A stretch of DNA of 8,765 nucleotides from IMG/VR virus record IMGVR_UViG_2585427739_000005. One strand, written 5' to 3'. Source of the stretch: a virus (taxonomy: Duplodnaviria; Heunggongvirae; Uroviricota; Caudoviricetes). Positions 2 through 8,765 of this stretch are shown in pieces. The position numbers and the translations under genes are program-made. The notes under the pieces are model-generated. The model had not been told where the DNA came from. It did no database searches and was given only the letters and a program-made list of their open reading frames with translations. Within the stretch, counting starts at the first letter, position 1. Each line of letters starts with the position of its first letter.

Positions 2-436
2 TGCGTTACCGAGTGGATGGATGAATGCCGCCGCGAACCATTCAAAACCCGCGAAGGCAGAGAAATCACGGGGCCGTGGCAGTCGCATCCCAAACGGATG
101 TTACGGCATAAAGCCATGATTCAGTGTGCCCGTCTCGCCTTCGGATTTGCTGGTATCTATGACAAGGATGAAGCCGAGCGCATTGTCGAAAATACCGCAT
201 ACACTGCAGAACGTCAGCCGGAACGCGACATCACTCCGGTTAACGATGAAACCATGCAGGAGATTAACACTCTGCTGATTGCCCTGGATAAAACATGGGA
301 TGACGACTTATTGCCGCTCTGTTCCCAGATATTTCGCCGCGACATTCGCGCATCGTCAGAACTGACACAGGCCGAAGCAGTGAAAGCTCTTGGATTCCTG
401 AAACAGAAAGCCACTGAGCAGAAGGTGGCTGCATGA
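2..436 (+). CDS. bet: Bet single-strand annealing recombinase (Red beta), 3' portion; 5' end lies upstream of the window
   Basis: Open frame from window edge; translation (...[48 protein letters not shown]...KVAA) matches recalled lambda Bet C-terminus. Stop TGA 434-436 overlaps the exo ATG (ATGA). Confidence 0.9.
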
Positions 437-1846: not shown

Positions 1847-2068
1847 ATGGCAGACATAATTGATTCAGCATCAGAAATTGAAGAATTACAGCGCAACACA
1901 GCAATAAAAATGCGCCGCCTGAACCACCAGGCTATATCTGCCACTCATTGTTGTGAGTGTGGCGATCCGATAGATGAACGAAGACGACTGGCCGTTCATG
2001 GTTGTCGGACTTGTGCCAGTTGCCAGCAAGATCTGGAGCTTATCAGTAAACAGAGAGGTTCGAAGTGA
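1847..2068 (+). CDS. TraR/DksA-family C4-type zinc-finger protein (73 aa)
   Basis: Motif CCECGDPIDERRRLAVHGCRTCASCQ fits the TraR/DksA pattern CxxCGxPIxExRR...CxxCQ. This family is common in the early region of lambdoid prophages. Confidence 0.8.
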   Translation: MADIIDSASEIEELQRNTAIKMRRLNHQAISATHCCECGDPIDERRRLAVHGCRTCASCQQDLELISKQRGSK

Positions 2069-2472
2069 GCGAAATTAACTCTCAGGCACTGCGTGAAGCG
2101 GCAGAGAAAGCCGGTGAAGATAAGTGGCAGGCTAAAAAAATAAATGGTGATTTTTTCGTTATTCGTCACGGTAGTTATACAAGACAGCATGGCTACACAT
2201 CGTATCAACCCATTGCGGAGATTGATTGTAAGCCAGTCCGGGATTTTGTTGCCAAGGCTAATCCGGCTACCGTGCTGGAATTACTGGATGAACTGGAAGC
2301 AGCAAAAAAGCGCATTGCAGAACTGGAAGCGCGGGAAATACTGCTCCCGGAACGTAGCAGCATGCTTCATCGAACAGATTTTCACGATGATTACCAAACG
2401 GTAATGGCATACAAAGTTTCTGAAGTCATCGATGCAATCCGCGCTACTGGCATTCGCATCAAAGGAGAGTGA
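2065..2472 (+). CDS. Ead/Ea22-like phage protein (135 aa), likely coiled-coil C-terminal region
   Basis: GTG start overlaps the upstream stop (GTGA) with GAGAGG Shine-Dalgarno 6 nt upstream. Segment PATVLELLDELEAAKKRIAELEARE resembles the Ead/Ea22-like family as I recall it. An SphI site at 2360-2365, absent from recalled lambda, argues it is not lambda ea22 itself. Confidence 0.5.
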   Translation: MSEINSQALREAAEKAGEDKWQAKKINGDFFVIRHGSYTRQHGYTSYQPIAEIDCKPVRDFVAKANPATVLELLDELEAAKKRIAELEAREILLPERSSMLHRTDFHDDYQTVMAYKVSEVIDAIRATGIRIKGE

Positions 2473-2473
2473 G

Positions 2474-3229
2474 ATGATTCACTACCACGGTGGGCCTATT
2501 ACTCCTGATACGTGCGCAATGAGAGCATGGAAAGGGCGACATGCGTTTATCAGTTTTGCGCATTCAGGCCAGATCAATCTCGCGGCTGAATACTGTCAGT
2601 AGTTCGCGCTGGACAACGGTGCATTCACCGCCTGGAAAGCAGCTGGCAAAAACAAAATCGACTGGAGCGATTACTACGAGTTTGTTGCTCGCTGGAAGAA
2701 TCACCCAGGATTCGATTTTGCCATTATCCCGGATGTTATTGATGGCGGAGAGGAGGAAAATGATGCGCTTCTGAATGAGTGGCCTCACGGAAAACTAGCT
2801 GGCGTTCCAGTGTGGCACATGAATGAAAGTGACGAGCGATTTATTCATTTGTGCAATGAGTTTCCGCGAGTGGCTATCGGTAGTTGTGGCGACTATGACG
2901 TAAAGCGCCCAACTCTTGCGGTAGCCAGAATGAAAGACCTGATTCGTCACATTGTTGATGGGCATGGTCAGCCGGTTACGAAACTACATGGATTGCGCAT
3001 GTTAAATCCGCTGATATTCACAAAATTACCCTTAGCCAGCGCAGATAGTACGAACGTCGCTCGAAACATCGGTATTGATAAAGCCTGGTCTGGGGCTTAT
3101 GCACCTGCAAGTAAAGAGACACGCGCAGCATTAATGGTAGAACGGATTGAGGCACACAATAGCCCTGGTTCTCTTGCGTATTGTGAACAACGCGACCGCT
3201 TTGAAATGCAATTGCAACTAGCAGTTTAA
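2474..3229 (+). pseudogene. TGT-like (queuine/7-deazaguanine transglycosylase, DpdA-like) gene interrupted by an in-frame amber codon at 2600-2602
   Basis: Seen: strong AAAGGAGAG Shine-Dalgarno before ATG 2474; one frame runs 2474..3229 with a single TAG after codon 42 (...EYCQ*FALDNG...), preceded by CAG. Inference: AIIPDVID, VAIGSCGD and ASADSTNVARNIG occur in the same order as recalled TGT motifs MIFDEC, YAVGGLAVGE and DCVMPTRNARNG. Family assignment is from memory, not searched. Confidence 0.5.
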
Positions 3230-3239
3230 GGACTAACAA

Positions 3240-3815
3240 ATGACCACTATTACCAAAGAACGTATTGAATTGTTCATTAAAAATCCGCTTGAAAACGGGC
3301 TTACTCGTGACGAACAAATGGAACTGGCACGAATTGCACTGGCATCACTGGGAGCAGAACCTGTAAGCCAAACTTACAACTTGCCAGAATTAATCGAAGG
3401 CATGGAGGTTTCCATTGATGTAAGCACTTGTGATGCGGATTTAGGTAATCGCTATTTCGGTACCGTCACCGAGGCGTTAGAACTTGATACTGCCAAGAAT
3501 GGTTACATCCTCCTGGTTCAGGACGCAGAGCCAAACTTCGATATAAATGGCAATTCTCCGGTAACTCCGGATGGTTGGGTTATAGTGCCGAAGAAACTAA
3601 CCGCTGAGAACGGCGCTAAGGGTGTGCTATCCGGTGAATTTTCAGAAACTACGTTTATAAGCTGCCCGGAATGCTTTGGTGATGATGATTGCGAAACTTG
3701 TGACGGCAGCGGAAGAATCGAAATCAAGGTTCCAGTCAGTTGGACAACTATCAAAACTATTTGGGCTAAAGGGTGTGAGTACTTTTCAATAGTAGCACCG
3801 CAGCAAGATGGGTGA
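3240..3815 (+). CDS. Hypothetical protein (191 aa) with a C-terminal DnaJ-like cysteine motif CPECFGDDDCETCDGSGR
   Basis: AAGGA Shine-Dalgarno 7 nt upstream of ATG 3240. CxxCxGxxxCxxCxGxG resembles the DnaJ cysteine-rich zinc-binding repeat. A KpnI site at 3459-3464 is absent from recalled lambda. Function unknown. Confidence 0.7.
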   Translation: MTTITKERIELFIKNPLENGLTRDEQMELARIALASLGAEPVSQTYNLPELIEGMEVSIDVSTCDADLGNRYFGTVTEALELDTAKNGYILLVQDAEPNFDINGNSPVTPDGWVIVPKKLTAENGAKGVLSGEFSETTFISCPECFGDDDCETCDGSGRIEIKVPVSWTTIKTIWAKGCEYFSIVAPQQDG

Positions 3816-3902
3816 TGAAAACAAGTATTTATAACTTAAAAGCATTAAAAAATCGCTTATAGATCAAAAGAAATCTACGTCAAATATTACTATATTTCAA
3901 TG

Positions 3903-3911
3903 TGTTATAAT
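3903..3911 (+). promoter_or_regulatory. Candidate extended -10 promoter element (TGTTATAAT) in an AT-rich intergenic island (3816-3941)
   Basis: Seen: TGnTATAAT at 3903-3911, about 30 bp upstream of ATG 3942; no good -35 hexamer. Confidence 0.4.
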
Positions 3912-3941
3912 TACCCCGTCCATAAAATGGGGGGACACAAA

Positions 3942-4184
3942 ATGTTCAAACGCTGCATCGCCAAGTGTGGAAGCACACCTGACATCCAAGCTTTTATTAA
4001 TGAAGATGGTAAGCTTGTTGTTGAGAGGAGTGGTCCTTTTATTAGCAAACAACTTATCATTACCTCTCCAGCGGAGATGGCCGGGGAATGGATAGTTTCT
4101 GAACCAGAGGAGTTGCACATCCCGCTTCCTTATGGCCCTCAGGGACTGATTTATAACCGTTATGTTCAGAAGGAGGCGGGTTGA
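3942..4184 (+). CDS. Hypothetical small protein (80 aa; MFKRCIAKCGSTPDIQAFINEDGKLVVERSG...)
   Basis: GGGGGGA Shine-Dalgarno 6 nt upstream of ATG 3942. The track ORF 3900..4184 is the same frame from an ATG that lies inside the candidate promoter. HindIII sites at 3988 and 4011 are absent from recalled lambda. Confidence 0.5.
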   Translation: MFKRCIAKCGSTPDIQAFINEDGKLVVERSGPFISKQLIITSPAEMAGEWIVSEPEELHIPLPYGPQGLIYNRYVQKEAG

Positions 4185-4443
4185 CAATGTCAGGCATAAC
4201 ATCGCCGAGAAATCGAAAGAAAAACAGAACAAGGTAAACGTTGACCTTGCAGCATCAGGCATGGAGTACAGAGAGCGCCTTAACATACCTGTTATCACTG
4301 AGCAGGTATCATGAGAGCAACCTGAGCACTCACGCGAGTATTTCATGGAGCGCATCAGATACTATCGCGAGCAGTCGTTAAACATGCCCAAGGGAAGCAA
4401 CCCATGGTATATCGATATGGATGAACAGAACGCCAAGAAGTAA
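4162..4443 (+). pseudogene. 282-bp ORF at the position of lambda ea8.5, interrupted by an in-frame TGA at 4312-4314
   Basis: Seen: ATG 4162 to TAA 4441-4443 is one frame with a single internal TGA. Length and distance from xis match recalled lambda ea8.5 coordinates to within 1 bp. The translation has no Cys, and NcoI (4402) and ClaI (4411) sites not recalled in lambda lie inside it, so identity with ea8.5 is uncertain. Confidence 0.35.
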
Positions 4444-4463
4444 ACGCAATTTGAACGAATGCG

Positions 4464-4489
4464 AACCCGCCGAGTGCGGGTTTTCTTTT
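4464..4489 (+). terminator. Rho-independent terminator (first of a tandem pair)
   Basis: Seen: stem AACCCGC / GCGGGTT (7 bp), loop CGAGT, then TTCTTTT. Confidence 0.6.
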
Positions 4490-4493
4490 ATCT

Positions 4494-4519
4494 GAACTCG
4501 CTACGGCGAGTTTTGTTTT
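4494..4519 (+). terminator. Rho-independent terminator (second of a tandem pair)
   Basis: Seen: stem ACTCGC / GCGAGT (6 bp), loop TACG, then TTTTGTTTT. Confidence 0.55.
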
Positions 4520-4532
4520 ATGGCGATGATAA

Positions 4533-4700
4533 ATGCACTTCCGAGTTACAGGTGAATGGAATGGAGAACCATTCAACAGAGTTATCGAAGCCGAGAACAT
4601 CAGCGACTGCTATAACCACTGGATGCTGTGGGCGCAGATAGCACATGCAGACGTAACCAATATTCGAATTGAAGAACTGAAAGAACACCAAGCCGCCTGA
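4533..4700 (+). CDS. Lambda orf55-like hypothetical protein (55 aa; MHFRVTGEWNGEPFNRVIEAENISDCYNHWMLWAQIAHADVTNIRIEELKEHQAA)
   Basis: Seen: ORF below the track cut-off, ending inside the next terminator. Maps exactly onto my recalled coordinates for the 55-aa hypothetical gene next to xis in lambda. Weak Shine-Dalgarno. Confidence 0.5.
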   Translation: MHFRVTGEWNGEPFNRVIEAENISDCYNHWMLWAQIAHADVTNIRIEELKEHQAA

Positions 4701-4713
4701 TGGCGGTTTTTTC
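4691..4713 (+). terminator. Rho-independent terminator overlapping the orf55-like stop codon
   Basis: Seen: stem AGCCGCC / GGCGGTT, loop TGAT (holds the TGA stop), then TTTTTTCTT. Confidence 0.6.
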
Positions 4714-4727
4714 TTGCGTGTAATTGC
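4714..4727 (+). promoter_or_regulatory. CII-type activator site TTGC-N6-TTGC of the int promoter (pI-like) just upstream of xis
   Basis: Seen: TTGCGTGTAATTGC at 4714-4727, about 13 bp upstream of the xis ATG. Established: lambda pI is CII-activated at TTGCN6TTGC and its transcript starts inside xis so Int is made without Xis. Confidence 0.6.
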
Positions 4728-4739
4728 GGAGACTTTGCG

Positions 4740-4958
4740 ATGTACTTGACACTTCAGGAGTGGAACGCTCGCCAGCGACGCCCAAGAAGCCTTGAAACAG
4801 TTCGTCGATGGGTGCGCGAATGCAGGATATTCCCTCCTCCGGTTAAGGATGGAAGAGAATATCTGTTCCACGAATCAGCGGTAAAGGTTGACTTAAATCG
4901 ACCAGTAACAGGTAGCCTTTTGAAGAGGATCAGAAATGGGAAGAAGGCGAAGTCATGA
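4740..4958 (+). CDS. xis: Excisionase Xis (72 aa)
   Basis: Translation MYLTLQEWNARQRRPRSLETVRRWVRECRIFPPPVKDGREYLFHESAVKVDLNRPVTGSLLKRIRNGKKAKS matches recalled lambda Xis; 23-bp overlap with int as in lambda. Confidence 0.95.
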   Translation: MYLTLQEWNARQRRPRSLETVRRWVRECRIFPPPVKDGREYLFHESAVKVDLNRPVTGSLLKRIRNGKKAKS

Positions 4959-6006
4959 GCGCCGGGATTTACCCCCTAACCTTTATATAAGAAACAATGG
5001 ATATTACTGCTACAGGGACCCAAGGACGGGTAAAGAGTTTGGATTAGGCCGAGACAGGCGAATCGCAATCACTGAAGCTATACAGGCCAACATTGAGTTA
5101 TTTTCAGGACACAAACACAAGCCTCTGACAGCGAGAATCAACAGTGATAATTCCGTTACGTTACATTCATGGCTTGATCGCTACGAAAAAATCCTGGCCA
5201 GCAGAGGAATCAAGCAGAAGACACTCATAAATTACATGAGCAAAATTAAAGCAATAAGGAGGGGTCTGCCTGATGCTCCACTTGAAGACATCACCACAAA
5301 AGAAATTGCGGCAATGCTCAATGGATACATAGACGAGGGCAAGGCGGCGTCAGCCAAGTTAATCAGATCAACACTGAGCGATGCATTCCGAGAGGCAATA
5401 GCTGAAGGCCATATAACAACAAACCCTGTCGCTGCCACTCGCGCAGCAAAATCAGAGGTAAGGAGATCAAGACTTACGGCTGACGAATACCTGAAAATTT
5501 ATCAAGCAGCAGAATCATCACCATGTTGGCTCAGACTTGCAATGGAACTGGCTGTTGTTACCGGGCAACGAGTTGGTGATTTATGCGAAATGAAGTGGTC
5601 TGATATCGTAGATGGATATCTTTATGTCGAGCAAAGCAAAACAGGCGTAAAAATTGCCATCCCAACAGCATTGCATGTTGATGCTCTCGGAATATCAATG
5701 AAGGAAACACTTGATAAATGCAAAGAGATTCTTGGCGGAGAAACCATAATTGCATCTACTCGTCGCGAACCGCTTTCATCCGGCACAGTATCAAGGTATT
5801 TTATGCGCGCACGAAAAGCATCAGGTCTTTCCTTCGAAGGGGATCCGCCTACCTTTCACGAGTTGCGCAGTTTGTCTGCAAGACTCTATGAGAAGCAGAT
5901 AAGCGATAAGTTTGCTCAACATCTTCTCGGGCATAAGTCGGACACCATGGCATCACAGTATCGTGATGACAGAGGCAGGGAGTGGGACAAAATTGAAATC
6001 AAATAA
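4936..6006 (+). CDS. int: Tyrosine site-specific integrase Int (356 aa), lambda type
   Basis: Full-length match to recalled lambda Int (MGRRRSHERRDLPPNLYIRNNGYYCYRDPRTGKEF...REWDKIEIK) with a few apparent substitutions. Recalled lambda BamHI, NruI and NcoI sites all present at the expected offsets. Confidence 0.97.
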   Translation: MGRRRSHERRDLPPNLYIRNNGYYCYRDPRTGKEFGLGRDRRIAITEAIQANIELFSGHKHKPLTARINSDNSVTLHSWLDRYEKILASRGIKQKTLINYMSKIKAIRRGLPDAPLEDITTKEIAAMLNGYIDEGKAASAKLIRSTLSDAFREAIAEGHITTNPVAATRAAKSEVRRSRLTADEYLKIYQAAESSPCWLRLAMELAVVTGQRVGDLCEMKWSDIVDGYLYVEQSKTGVKIAIPTALHVDALGISMKETLDKCKEILGGETIIASTRREPLSSGTVSRYFMRARKASGLSFEGDPPTFHELRSLSARLYEKQISDKFAQHLLGHKSDTMASQYRDDRGREWDKIEIK

Positions 6007-7424: not shown

Positions 7425-7439
7425 GAGCAATTAACTATT

Positions 7440-7645
<206 letters not shown>

Positions 7646-7657
7646 ACATGGCGCTTT

Positions 7658-8067
7658 TTACATCTGACGGTTTTTATTGAAGTTAATCAAACTACCCGCC
7701 TTGATAATCTCGCGCTCTTCAGCAGTCAGACTTTCCATATAGAGCGTAATTTCCGTTACCGGCGCATCTTCATGGATCACATAACCTTTAAACGTCGTAC
7801 CCGGATTATCCAGCGCCGCTTTAATGCCAGGGATGTAAATGTAATCCCCCACTTCAAAGGTTGGCACTTCCGCCATCTGCAGCGGTAACATCCCCCAGTT
7901 GATGACGTTAGAACGGTAGCGTTTAGTCGCGTACTCTTCGGAAATATTCGCCAGACCGCCAATCACACGCTGGCAGCTCGCCGCCTGTTCACGCGCAGAA
8001 CCATCGCCTGGTTTCACCGCATATACCATGCTGCCAATTTCAGTTTGCAGCGGATCAATATGCTCCT
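7658..8067 (-). pseudogene. ybhJ: 3' portion of an aconitase-family hydratase gene (YbhJ-like), truncated by IS2 insertion at 8068
   Basis: Translation contains an aconitase C-terminal-domain-like segment ([44 protein letters not shown]). The frame runs straight into the IS2 end; the track ORF's first ~12 codons are IS2 sequence. The gene's 5' part would lie beyond the IS2, outside the window. Confidence 0.7.
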
Positions 8068-8765
8068 TGGATTTGCCCCTATATTTCCAGACATCTGTTA
8101 TCACTTAACCCATTACAAGCCCGCTGCCGCAGATATTCCCGTGGCGAGCGATAACCCAGCGCACTATGCGGATGCCATTCGTTATAATGCTCGAACGCCT
8201 CTGCAAGGTTCTTTGCTGCCGTTAACCCGTCTGGTTTGGGCATGATACTGATGTAGTCACGCTTTATCGTTTTCACGAAGCTCTCTGCTATTCCGTTACT
8301 CTCCGGACTCCGCACCGCCGTGTTCTTCGGTTCAAGTCCCAACATCCGGGCGAACTGGCGTGTTTCATTAGCCCGGTAGCATGAACCATTATCCGTCAGC
8401 CACTCCACTGGAGACGGCGGAAGATCGTTGCCGAAGCGGCGTTCCACCGCTCCCAGCATGACGTCCTGTACTGTTTCACTGTTGAAGCCGCCGGTAGTGA
8501 CCGCCCAGTGCAGTGCCTCACGATCACAGCAGTCCAGCGCGAACGTGACACGCAGTCTCTCTCCGTTATCACAGCAGAACTCGAACCCGTCAGAGCACCA
8601 TCGCTGATTGCTTTCTTTCACGGCCACTCTGCCTGTATGTGCCCGTTTCGATGGCGGTACAGCAGGTTTTCGCTCAAGCAACAGCGCATTCTGGCGCATG
8701 ATCCGGTAAACACGTTTGGCATTGATCGCAGGCATACCATCAAGTTCTGCCTGTCTGCGAAGCAG
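8068..8765 (-). mobile_element. IS2 insertion sequence (IS3 family), right end through most of insD; truncated by the window end
   Basis: Seen: terminal inverted repeat TGGATTTGCCCCTATATTTCCAGACATCTGTTATCACTTAACCC starts at 8068 (recalled IS2 right end); the InsD ORF follows on the minus strand. Confidence 0.9.
8079..8765 (-). CDS. insD: IS2 transposase OrfB/InsD (DDE integrase core), 5' end beyond the window
   Basis: Translation (...[53 protein letters not shown]...[10 protein letters not shown]) matches recalled IS2 InsD; the frame is open to the window edge. Confidence 0.9.

Follow-up and report, generated by a model that had tools for sequence, protein, structure and literature searches.

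We analysed a stretch of 8,765 nucleotides (nt) from the tailed-phage record IMGVR_UViG_2585427739_000005 of IMG/VR, which is called the window in the following. The subject is the segment 3816-4519, in which an earlier interpretation made from the letters alone (the sequence-only reading) had seen a promoter, an open reading frame (ORF) of 80 amino acids (aa) and two terminators, forming a unit within a leftward prophage operon. The segment holds an AT-rich spacer with a conserved promoter-like block, the intact gene orf80, the remains of a gene for a homolog of the DNA polymerase III theta subunit, and tandem hairpins. These elements, together with the next hairpin downstream, are as follows.

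3816-3941, plus strand: AT-rich intergenic island, GC fraction 0.278 against 0.45-0.49 in every flanking gene; carries the promoter-like block
3860-3877, no strand assigned: palindrome TAGAT-N8-ATCTA, at about -58 to -41 from the predicted transcription start; possible operator
3875-3882, plus strand: conserved CTACGTCA box that extends from about -43 to -36, over the -35 position; candidate binding site for a regulator
3901-3911, plus strand: extended -10 element TGTG-T-TATAAT, with the TG at 3903-3904 and the hexamer at 3906-3911; predicted start near G3918
3929-3935, plus strand: Shine-Dalgarno-like GGGGGGA, ending 6 nt 5' of the ATG at 3942
3942-4184, plus strand: orf80, 80 aa, family phrog_9613, predicted small all-beta domain
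4162-4443, plus strand: DNA polymerase III theta pseudogene, filling the 280 nt between orf80 and the terminators
4463-4492, plus strand: terminator 1, hairpin 4463-4483 (GAACCCGC-cgagt-GCGGGTTT) plus T-run, -12.4 kcal/mol, z = -2.2
4494-4522, plus strand: terminator 2, hairpin 4494-4513 (GAACTCGC-tacg-GCGAGTTT) plus T-run, -11.9 kcal/mol, z = -3.8
4690-4716, plus strand: terminator 3, hairpin 4690-4709, after the orf55 homolog, -14.6 kcal/mol, z = -3.1

All features described from the letters alone are present at the given coordinates: the spacer is AT-rich, the extended -10 element TGTTATAAT occupies 3903-3911, a Shine-Dalgarno sequence precedes the 80-aa ORF, and two consecutive hairpins with T-runs close the unit. 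That description had missed the theta pseudogene between the ORF and the terminators.

Conserved blocks upstream of orf80

The regions upstream of orf80 and its homologs were aligned for six sequences representing five lineages (Escherichia coli, Pectobacterium and metagenomes), whose proteins are 42-70% identical. In every lineage, an AT-rich gap of 126-210 nt (GC 0.26-0.35) precedes the ORF. The alignment contains two conserved blocks, which are separated by a spacer that is variable in sequence and fixed in length.

Block 1: The pattern is CTACGTC.AA (window 3875-3884), and CTACGTC as well as the two final A residues are invariant in all six sequences. The CTACGTCA box lies 22-23 nt 5' of the hexamer in all lineages, and it is duplicated 21 nt further upstream in L041 (Pectobacterium) and in the lineage of L045. 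A palindrome of the form TAGAY/TAGAT...ATCTA overlaps the box in four of the five lineages.

Block 2: The pattern is T..A.T.CA.T..G.TAT..T. Within its -10 region the invariant positions are G3904 of the TG motif and T3906, A3907, T3908 and T3911 of the hexamer. In sigma-70 -10 elements, the positions T-A-T-x-x-T carry most of the information. Among the lineages the element reads TGTTATAAT, TGTTATGCT, TGTTATGAT or TGATATATT. Further downstream, the homologs carry purine-rich equivalents of the Shine-Dalgarno sequence (AAGAGGAG, AAAGAGGG, AATGAGGA and AAAGGGTA).

The degree of conservation can be judged from the comparison with L039, a diverged IMG/VR copy. The window and L039 share 81% identity over the block 3826-3911, while the leader reaches 60% and the next 80 nt upstream 59%. 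Between the same two copies the synonymous sites of orf80 are near saturation (proportion of synonymous differences, pS, 0.62) and the proteins are 70% identical. Homology to this 70%-identity lineage (L039 and L006) begins at about 3826-3828. We regard the conserved blocks as good comparative evidence for what would be a functional extended -10 promoter with an operator-like site, and the location of this box, over the -35 region, points to regulated expression more than to constitutive expression.

The viral contigs of IMG/VR were scanned for the box together with the -10 pattern, with a variable gap between them. At the spacing of the cassette, 29 loci carry the promoter block of the window; 28 of them have an orf80 match, and the remaining contig is too short to reach the ORF. 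Other matches are scattered over unrelated contigs that have no orf80 match, and we read them as chance. A phage-wide regulon for the box was considered and rejected because ATCTACGTCA does not recur: across the 49-kb prophage of E. coli IAI1 there is no second exact copy, and near-matches are at chance level. As judged by eye, the CTACGTCA box is not known to fit a MetJ, IHF, CRP, FNR or LysR-type consensus. An Rfam search over 3816-4519 gave no match except a chance rsmX-like one on the tandem hairpins (E = 0.29).

The orf80 protein family

PGAP calls the identical ORF at 3942-4184 (WP_000476264 family). Some annotations use a 94-aa version that starts at the ATG at 3900; we set it aside, as the extension is not conserved in L039 and L041. 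The sequence-only reading had suggested a homology search with the 80-aa product, and this search placed it in a family with members beyond E. coli. orf80 matches phrog_9613 with E = 1e-49, residues 1-80 aligning to positions 3-82 of the 82 in the profile, and the distant homologs from Pectobacterium and from metagenomes match the same family (E = 1.5e-21 and 2.3e-17). As phrog_9613 is unannotated, membership tells nothing about the function of orf80.

The family is small. No relatives were found in two scans of 185,579 species-representative genomes or, by tblastn, among 50,697 sequenced phage isolates. A HMMER search over 1.84 billion representative proteins returned only a handful of clusters, comprising the E. 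coli forms and others: P0005 (70% identity) and three forms of 74-79 aa with 42-49% identity, one of them from Pectobacterium. Two further matches, P0014 (nine matched stretches) and P0015 (a repeat protein), were set aside as spurious.

In deep comparisons, the ratio of non-synonymous to synonymous substitution rates (dN/dS) of orf80 is 0.19 (window against L039), 0.27 and 0.31, a sign of purifying selection on the protein. Within the near-identical E. coli clade, the 13 non-synonymous and 7 synonymous variants correspond to a relaxed ratio of about 0.5 per site. Of the 38 copies checked (36 loci plus the window), 35 have an intact gene; the damaged ones include that of L034, which is truncated, and that of L007, which is frameshifted. 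Two chimeric small ORFs occur in public assemblies. P0009 is a fusion of the orf55 N-terminus with the orf80 C-terminus; P0007 has the latter C-terminus behind a different N-terminus. Both suggest deletions at short shared motifs around GEW/EELH.

An AlphaFold2 model of orf80 shows six strands at a predicted local distance difference test score (pLDDT) of 81; an earlier model built from three sequences (pLDDT 39) was unusable. A PilZ or split-beta-barrel fold was considered for the protein and rejected, as the combination of a confident structural match and the cyclic di-GMP motifs RxxxR and D/NxSxxG was not found. Our best guess is that orf80 is a binding-type accessory factor which is dispensable for phage growth. 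In the literature, we found nothing on the locus beyond terminator predictions for lambda.

The theta pseudogene

Two fragments of a theta gene follow orf80. The 5' fragment matches PF06440 with 56.0 bits (cutoff 34.6) over residues 12-49, and the 3' fragment covers positions 43-68 of the NCBIfam profile PRK10969 and positions 45-79 of phrog_1105; both fragments are matched by PRK10969 and phrog_1105. The reading frame is interrupted by a TGA at 4312-4314 and is not intact. PGAP annotates "DNA polymerase III subunit theta, internal stop" in each E. coli genome inspected.

Start region: The native ribosome-binding site is AAGGAGG at 4170-4176, and the native ATG at 4187 is out of frame because all E. 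coli copies lack one C (ATGTCAGGCAT) compared with L039. No E. coli copy has the native start in frame. L039 encodes an intact theta of 64 aa, which starts at ATGTCAGGCCAT and has its own ribosome-binding site. A spacer of roughly 61 nt that separates orf80 from theta in L039 was lost in the lineage of the window (window 4161-4172 against L039 3241-3301). As a consequence, the AAGGAGG of theta encodes the last codons of orf80 (QKEAG).

Further lesions: L034 and L035 have CGA (Arg) at the position of the TGA in the window. L035 carries a further 1-nt deletion, L036 and L037 a 2-nt deletion, and L021 a second stop. With at least five independent lesions, theta is therefore a decaying pseudogene, and the unit was formerly a two-gene cassette whose second gene is now dead. 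Rescue of theta by programmed -1 frameshifting was rejected: CGAAAGAAAAAC contains no slippery site of the type X XXY YYZ, and several further lesions are independent.

A second theta pseudogene occurs in the nin region of the IAI1 prophage (L048, 17390-17638), where the in-frame TGA is at a different codon (Gly). The two independently inactivated theta genes in this prophage may reflect selection against expression of phage theta, or coincidence. Directly after theta, L039 encodes a 181-aa protein (3515-4060) whose two termini carry hydrophobic segments. Pfam, PHROGs and PADLOC gave no match for this protein, which may be the product of an accessory gene.

Tandem terminators

A terminator scan of the window gave eight terminator-like sites, terminators 1 to 3 among them, compared with 2.2 ± 1.3 expected. 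As read from the lambda sequence, and matching Table 4 of PMC4195576, two hairpins follow ea8.5 in lambda and another one follows orf55. These lambda terminators, t3, t4 and t5, were predicted by Bloch et al. 2014 (PMC4195576, Table 4). By sequence, terminator 2 corresponds to predicted t4 and terminator 3 to predicted t5; the latter would be the last barrier before pI and xis. Homology to lambda begins at 4478, inside the T-tail of terminator 1, which marks a mosaic joint. Terminator 1 is specific to the cassette or theta module, and terminator 2 is shared.

The pair also occurs elsewhere. In the nin region of Gifsy-2 (L134 1440-1620, STM1019.1n to dinI), a deleted theta remnant with the 3' end of the gene is followed by the same pair of terminators 1 and 2; the next element after the tandem hairpins is the LexA-box promoter of dinI. 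This Gifsy-2 counterpart was checked for IsrB-type small RNAs, and no Rfam family matches it. In L041 (Pectobacterium) and L045, a hairpin with a T-run stands directly 3' of the ORF. The hairpin after the Pectobacterium orf74, AACCCGC-cctgt-GCGGGTTTTTT, resembles terminator 1. The tandem hairpins upstream of xis are thus a common lambdoid joint that is not private to orf80 cargo.

Distribution and mobility

Among 5,426 complete E. coli genomes, 91 carry the unit, which is found in prophages of several types and at several attachment sites. BLASTN of the window against 39 loci showed that in most contexts the block shared among E. coli prophages is 3549-4535, which includes both hairpins and the last 267 nt (3549-3815) of the 191-aa upstream gene. 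Its location differs: the window and Pectobacterium have the cassette in the pL arm, immediately 5' of xis, and L006, L039 and L046 have it in the pR/nin arm. In L042, a deleted Pectobacterium prophage with the cassette, the nearest intact upstream genes are on the opposite strand, and a same-strand gene remnant lies directly upstream of the cassette.

Pectobacterium and two metagenomic lineages retain the family without theta. What lies downstream varies: Pectobacterium has a 158-aa protein of phrog_1636 there, and L046 an HNH_2 nuclease; an obligatory pair of orf80 and theta was therefore rejected. Insertion sequence (IS) elements are found inside the cassette of related strains. They sit in the orf80-theta interval in NT1N25 and 3' of terminator 1 in IAI1.

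The proposal of an autonomous promoter-gene-terminator cargo is supported by comparison in so far as the block travels with the ORF in five lineages and in both arms, and needs correction in so far as terminator 2 is a shared lambdoid hairpin. Similarly, the composition said to deviate from that of the neighbouring genes is confined to the spacer: orf80 itself has a GC fraction of 0.465, and of 0.444 at third codon positions, against 0.45-0.49 and 0.41-0.51 in its neighbours.

Genomic setting

The window represents the pL (leftward) arm of a lambda-like prophage, read on the plus strand, at the ybhC attachment site. Its phage genes on either side of the unit are as follows.

17-436, plus strand: bet, cut by the contig end
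433-1113, plus strand: exo
2065-2472, plus strand: Ea22-like gene, among several small genes between exo and xis
3240-3815, plus strand: 191-aa ORF, with a C-terminal CxxCxGxG (DnaJ-type) zinc-finger-like domain; phrog_60
4533-4700, plus strand: lambda orf55 homolog, phrog_676, the backbone gene following the cassette
4740-4958, plus strand: xis
4936-6006, plus strand: int, followed by bacterial ybhC and ybhJ

The gene order bet, exo, Ea22-like gene, xis, int and ybhC is that of lambda. As bet and exo lie upstream and xis and int downstream, all on the plus strand, the unit is within the leftward operon, in agreement with the sequence-only reading. PGAP names for the 191-aa ORF include "molecular chaperone DnaJ", DUF550, DUF551 and Ea22-like. 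When the window was compared by megablast with 50,697 phage records, matches began only at 4478, with lambda and 190 others; window 4478-4760 is 95-98% identical to lambda 29340-29058. As the match to lambda resumes only at this point, the unit fills the ea8.5 slot of lambda.

Interpretation and rival explanations

We consider it probable that the region is a moron-type cassette, which occupies the ea8.5 slot between exo and xis of a lambda-like prophage. That the unit is active in the repressed prophage is a tentative proposal, which we hold with less confidence. Several points weigh against this interpretation. orf80 has no match in Pfam, NCBIfam or PADLOC and no recognisable motif, its pLDDT-81 model yielded no significant structural relative, and its composition shows no signature of foreign origin. 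TGTTATAAT is the sole match to TGNTATAAT in the window, and this is weak alone: chance gives an expectation of 0.25 matches, and at least one occurs in 46 of 200 shuffles. No usable -35 hexamer was found upstream of it by a two-hexamer promoter scan, which for this reason does not call the site. Because the block shared among E. coli prophages contains 267 nt of the upstream gene, the joint travel of promoter and ORF there reflects recent common descent. Lambda also has tandem hairpins after ea8.5, so such hairpins are not cargo-specific evidence. Finally, promoter and terminator function are in silico assignments throughout.

The chance expectation for TGNTATAAT, the missing -35 hexamer, the hairpins of lambda and the GC fraction of orf80, which equals that of its neighbours, would also suit a simpler explanation. 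Here orf80, which is in line with bet, exo, xis and int on one strand, would be an ordinary early gene of the pL operon transcribed by N-antiterminated polymerase only, TGTTATAAT a chance match within an AT-rich spacer, and the hairpins generic backbone terminators that N overrides. A chance match does not account for the invariant positions over five lineages, which are the informative -10 positions plus the TG at a fixed spacing to a second box, or for a block conserved far above synonymous sites. Moreover, the block precedes the ORF in pR-arm contexts too, and likewise in L042, where the intact genes upstream are on the opposite strand (with the same-strand remnant directly upstream); and a gap of 126-210 nt is unusual in tightly packed early operons. 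We regard transcription from pL only as unlikely. It is even less likely that the unit is an inert, decaying relic, in which theta was the functional cargo and orf80 is intact merely through the recency of the E. coli copies. The multiple independent lesions of theta, the relaxed ratio of orf80 variants in the E. coli clade, the truncated and frameshifted orf80 of L034 and L007, and the degraded state of several carrier prophages would agree with decay. The low dN/dS of orf80 in deep comparisons argues against it, as do the persistence of the family without theta in Pectobacterium and two metagenomic lineages and the contrast between an orf80 that is intact in nearly all copies and an E. coli theta that never has its native start in frame. 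A function of the AT-rich block for the opposite strand is very improbable. TTGACG, the reverse complement of the box, would then be the -35 element of an antisense promoter into the upstream gene; in the window, TATAAG lies 16 nt downstream of it, and one minus-strand promoter-like site, TTGAAA-17-TAGATT, was found from 3900 to 3872. This one scan match compares with 3.8 expected, so there is no enrichment, and the minus-strand -10 is not conserved (TATAAG, TATGAA, TAACTC and TAACAG) and is without the final T, whereas the plus-strand -10 positions are invariant.

For the moron-type cassette, we propose the following scheme of promoter activity, start site, termination, timing of expression and protein role. 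Sigma-70 RNA polymerase would start near 3918 at the extended -10 promoter (TGTGTTATAAT), which would need no -35 hexamer. The CTACGTCA box at about -40 and the TAGAT-N8-ATCTA palindrome just upstream are probably bound by some regulator. From a leader of about 24 nt with a G-rich ribosome-binding site, orf80 would be translated into an 80-aa beta-rich accessory protein. The transcript would cross the dead theta gene and, with its end at terminator 1 or 2, would be an mRNA about 570-600 nt long. In the repressed prophage, terminators 1-3 would keep the promoter from driving xis and int, while in lytic growth N-modified polymerase from pL would read through them.

A more far-reaching version is unlikely in our view. 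In this version, orf80 would stand for a small undescribed family of beta-rich proteins of Enterobacterales prophages, expressed from an extended -10 promoter that is portable and under operator control. Selection in lysogens would maintain it as a domesticated lysogeny factor with a dedicated regulator of the CTACGTCA box, also in degraded prophages in which the neighbouring theta gene decays. Given its pairing with theta homologs in two E. coli lineages, the replisome might be a target of orf80.

Should the promoter be active in lysogens, orf80 would add to the accessory prophage genes that E. coli and Pectobacterium carry and express. The regulatory region, consisting of the extended -10 and the conserved box, is unusually well defined and could help in finding the regulator. 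The tandem hairpins probably insulate xis and int from whichever cargo sits upstream. The understanding of phage genome organisation is unchanged by these results; what goes beyond routine annotation is only the conserved box and the fact that orf80 is maintained where theta decays.

Comparison with known systems

Morons: The original definition is reportedly that of Hendrix, Juhala and colleagues (2000). We use the concept of promoter-gene-terminator insertions in lambdoid phages as in PMC7067206. Like the morons lom and bor of lambda and those of HK97 and HK022, orf80 is inserted between backbone genes and absent from close relatives. It likewise has a promoter-like element 5' and intrinsic terminators 3' (both in silico), occurs in varied phage contexts, and is without an evident role in phage core functions. 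Unlike morons, it lacks a deviant composition, a trait which is frequent in morons and not obligatory. The cassette further differs in having two genes (one of them dead), a second terminator shared with the backbone, and a conserved operator-like box.

Lambda exo-xis region: The unit has the same position as ea8.5, between an Ea22-type gene and orf55/xis, and terminator 1 is the positional analogue of t3, the lambda terminators themselves being only predicted. The cargo is unrelated (orf80 and the theta pseudogene against ea8.5), and the 126-nt AT-rich spacer of the window has no similarity to the 191-nt ea22-ea8.5 spacer of lambda.

Theta subunits: By its PF06440, PRK10969 and phrog_1105 matches, the second gene belongs with HolE of E. 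coli, Hot of P1, and the nin-region theta genes of HK639, Klebsiella phages and Gifsy-2. In HK639, theta is likewise preceded by an annotated terminator and by a gap of about 180 nt. In contrast to phage theta genes, the copy of the window is a pseudogene and lies in the pL arm and not in the nin region. No orf80-like gene was found upstream of other phage theta genes among those examined.

Other observations in the window

A 251-aa gene at 2474-3229 (queuine tRNA-ribosyltransferase/DpdA-like, phrog_887) has a nonsense codon at position 43 (2600-2602) in the window; the copy of FORC 064 is intact. Just 5' of the xis start, TTGCGTGTAATTGC at 4714-4729 is a TTGC-N6-TTGC motif at the position of the CII-activated promoter pI of lambda. 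In one phage record, "cII" is annotated beneath the match to the 4714-4729 region. Repeats of the repetitive extragenic palindromic/bacterial interspersed mosaic element (REP/BIME) type at 7427-7655, 3' of ybhC, match Rfam naRNA4 (RF02564), with one copy above the gathering threshold (60.7 bits) and two partial copies. On the minus strand at 7658-8104 and 8079-8735, an IS3-family transposase orfB (218 aa) adjoins a truncated ybhJ fragment; the host gene beside the attachment site is therefore interrupted by an insertion sequence.

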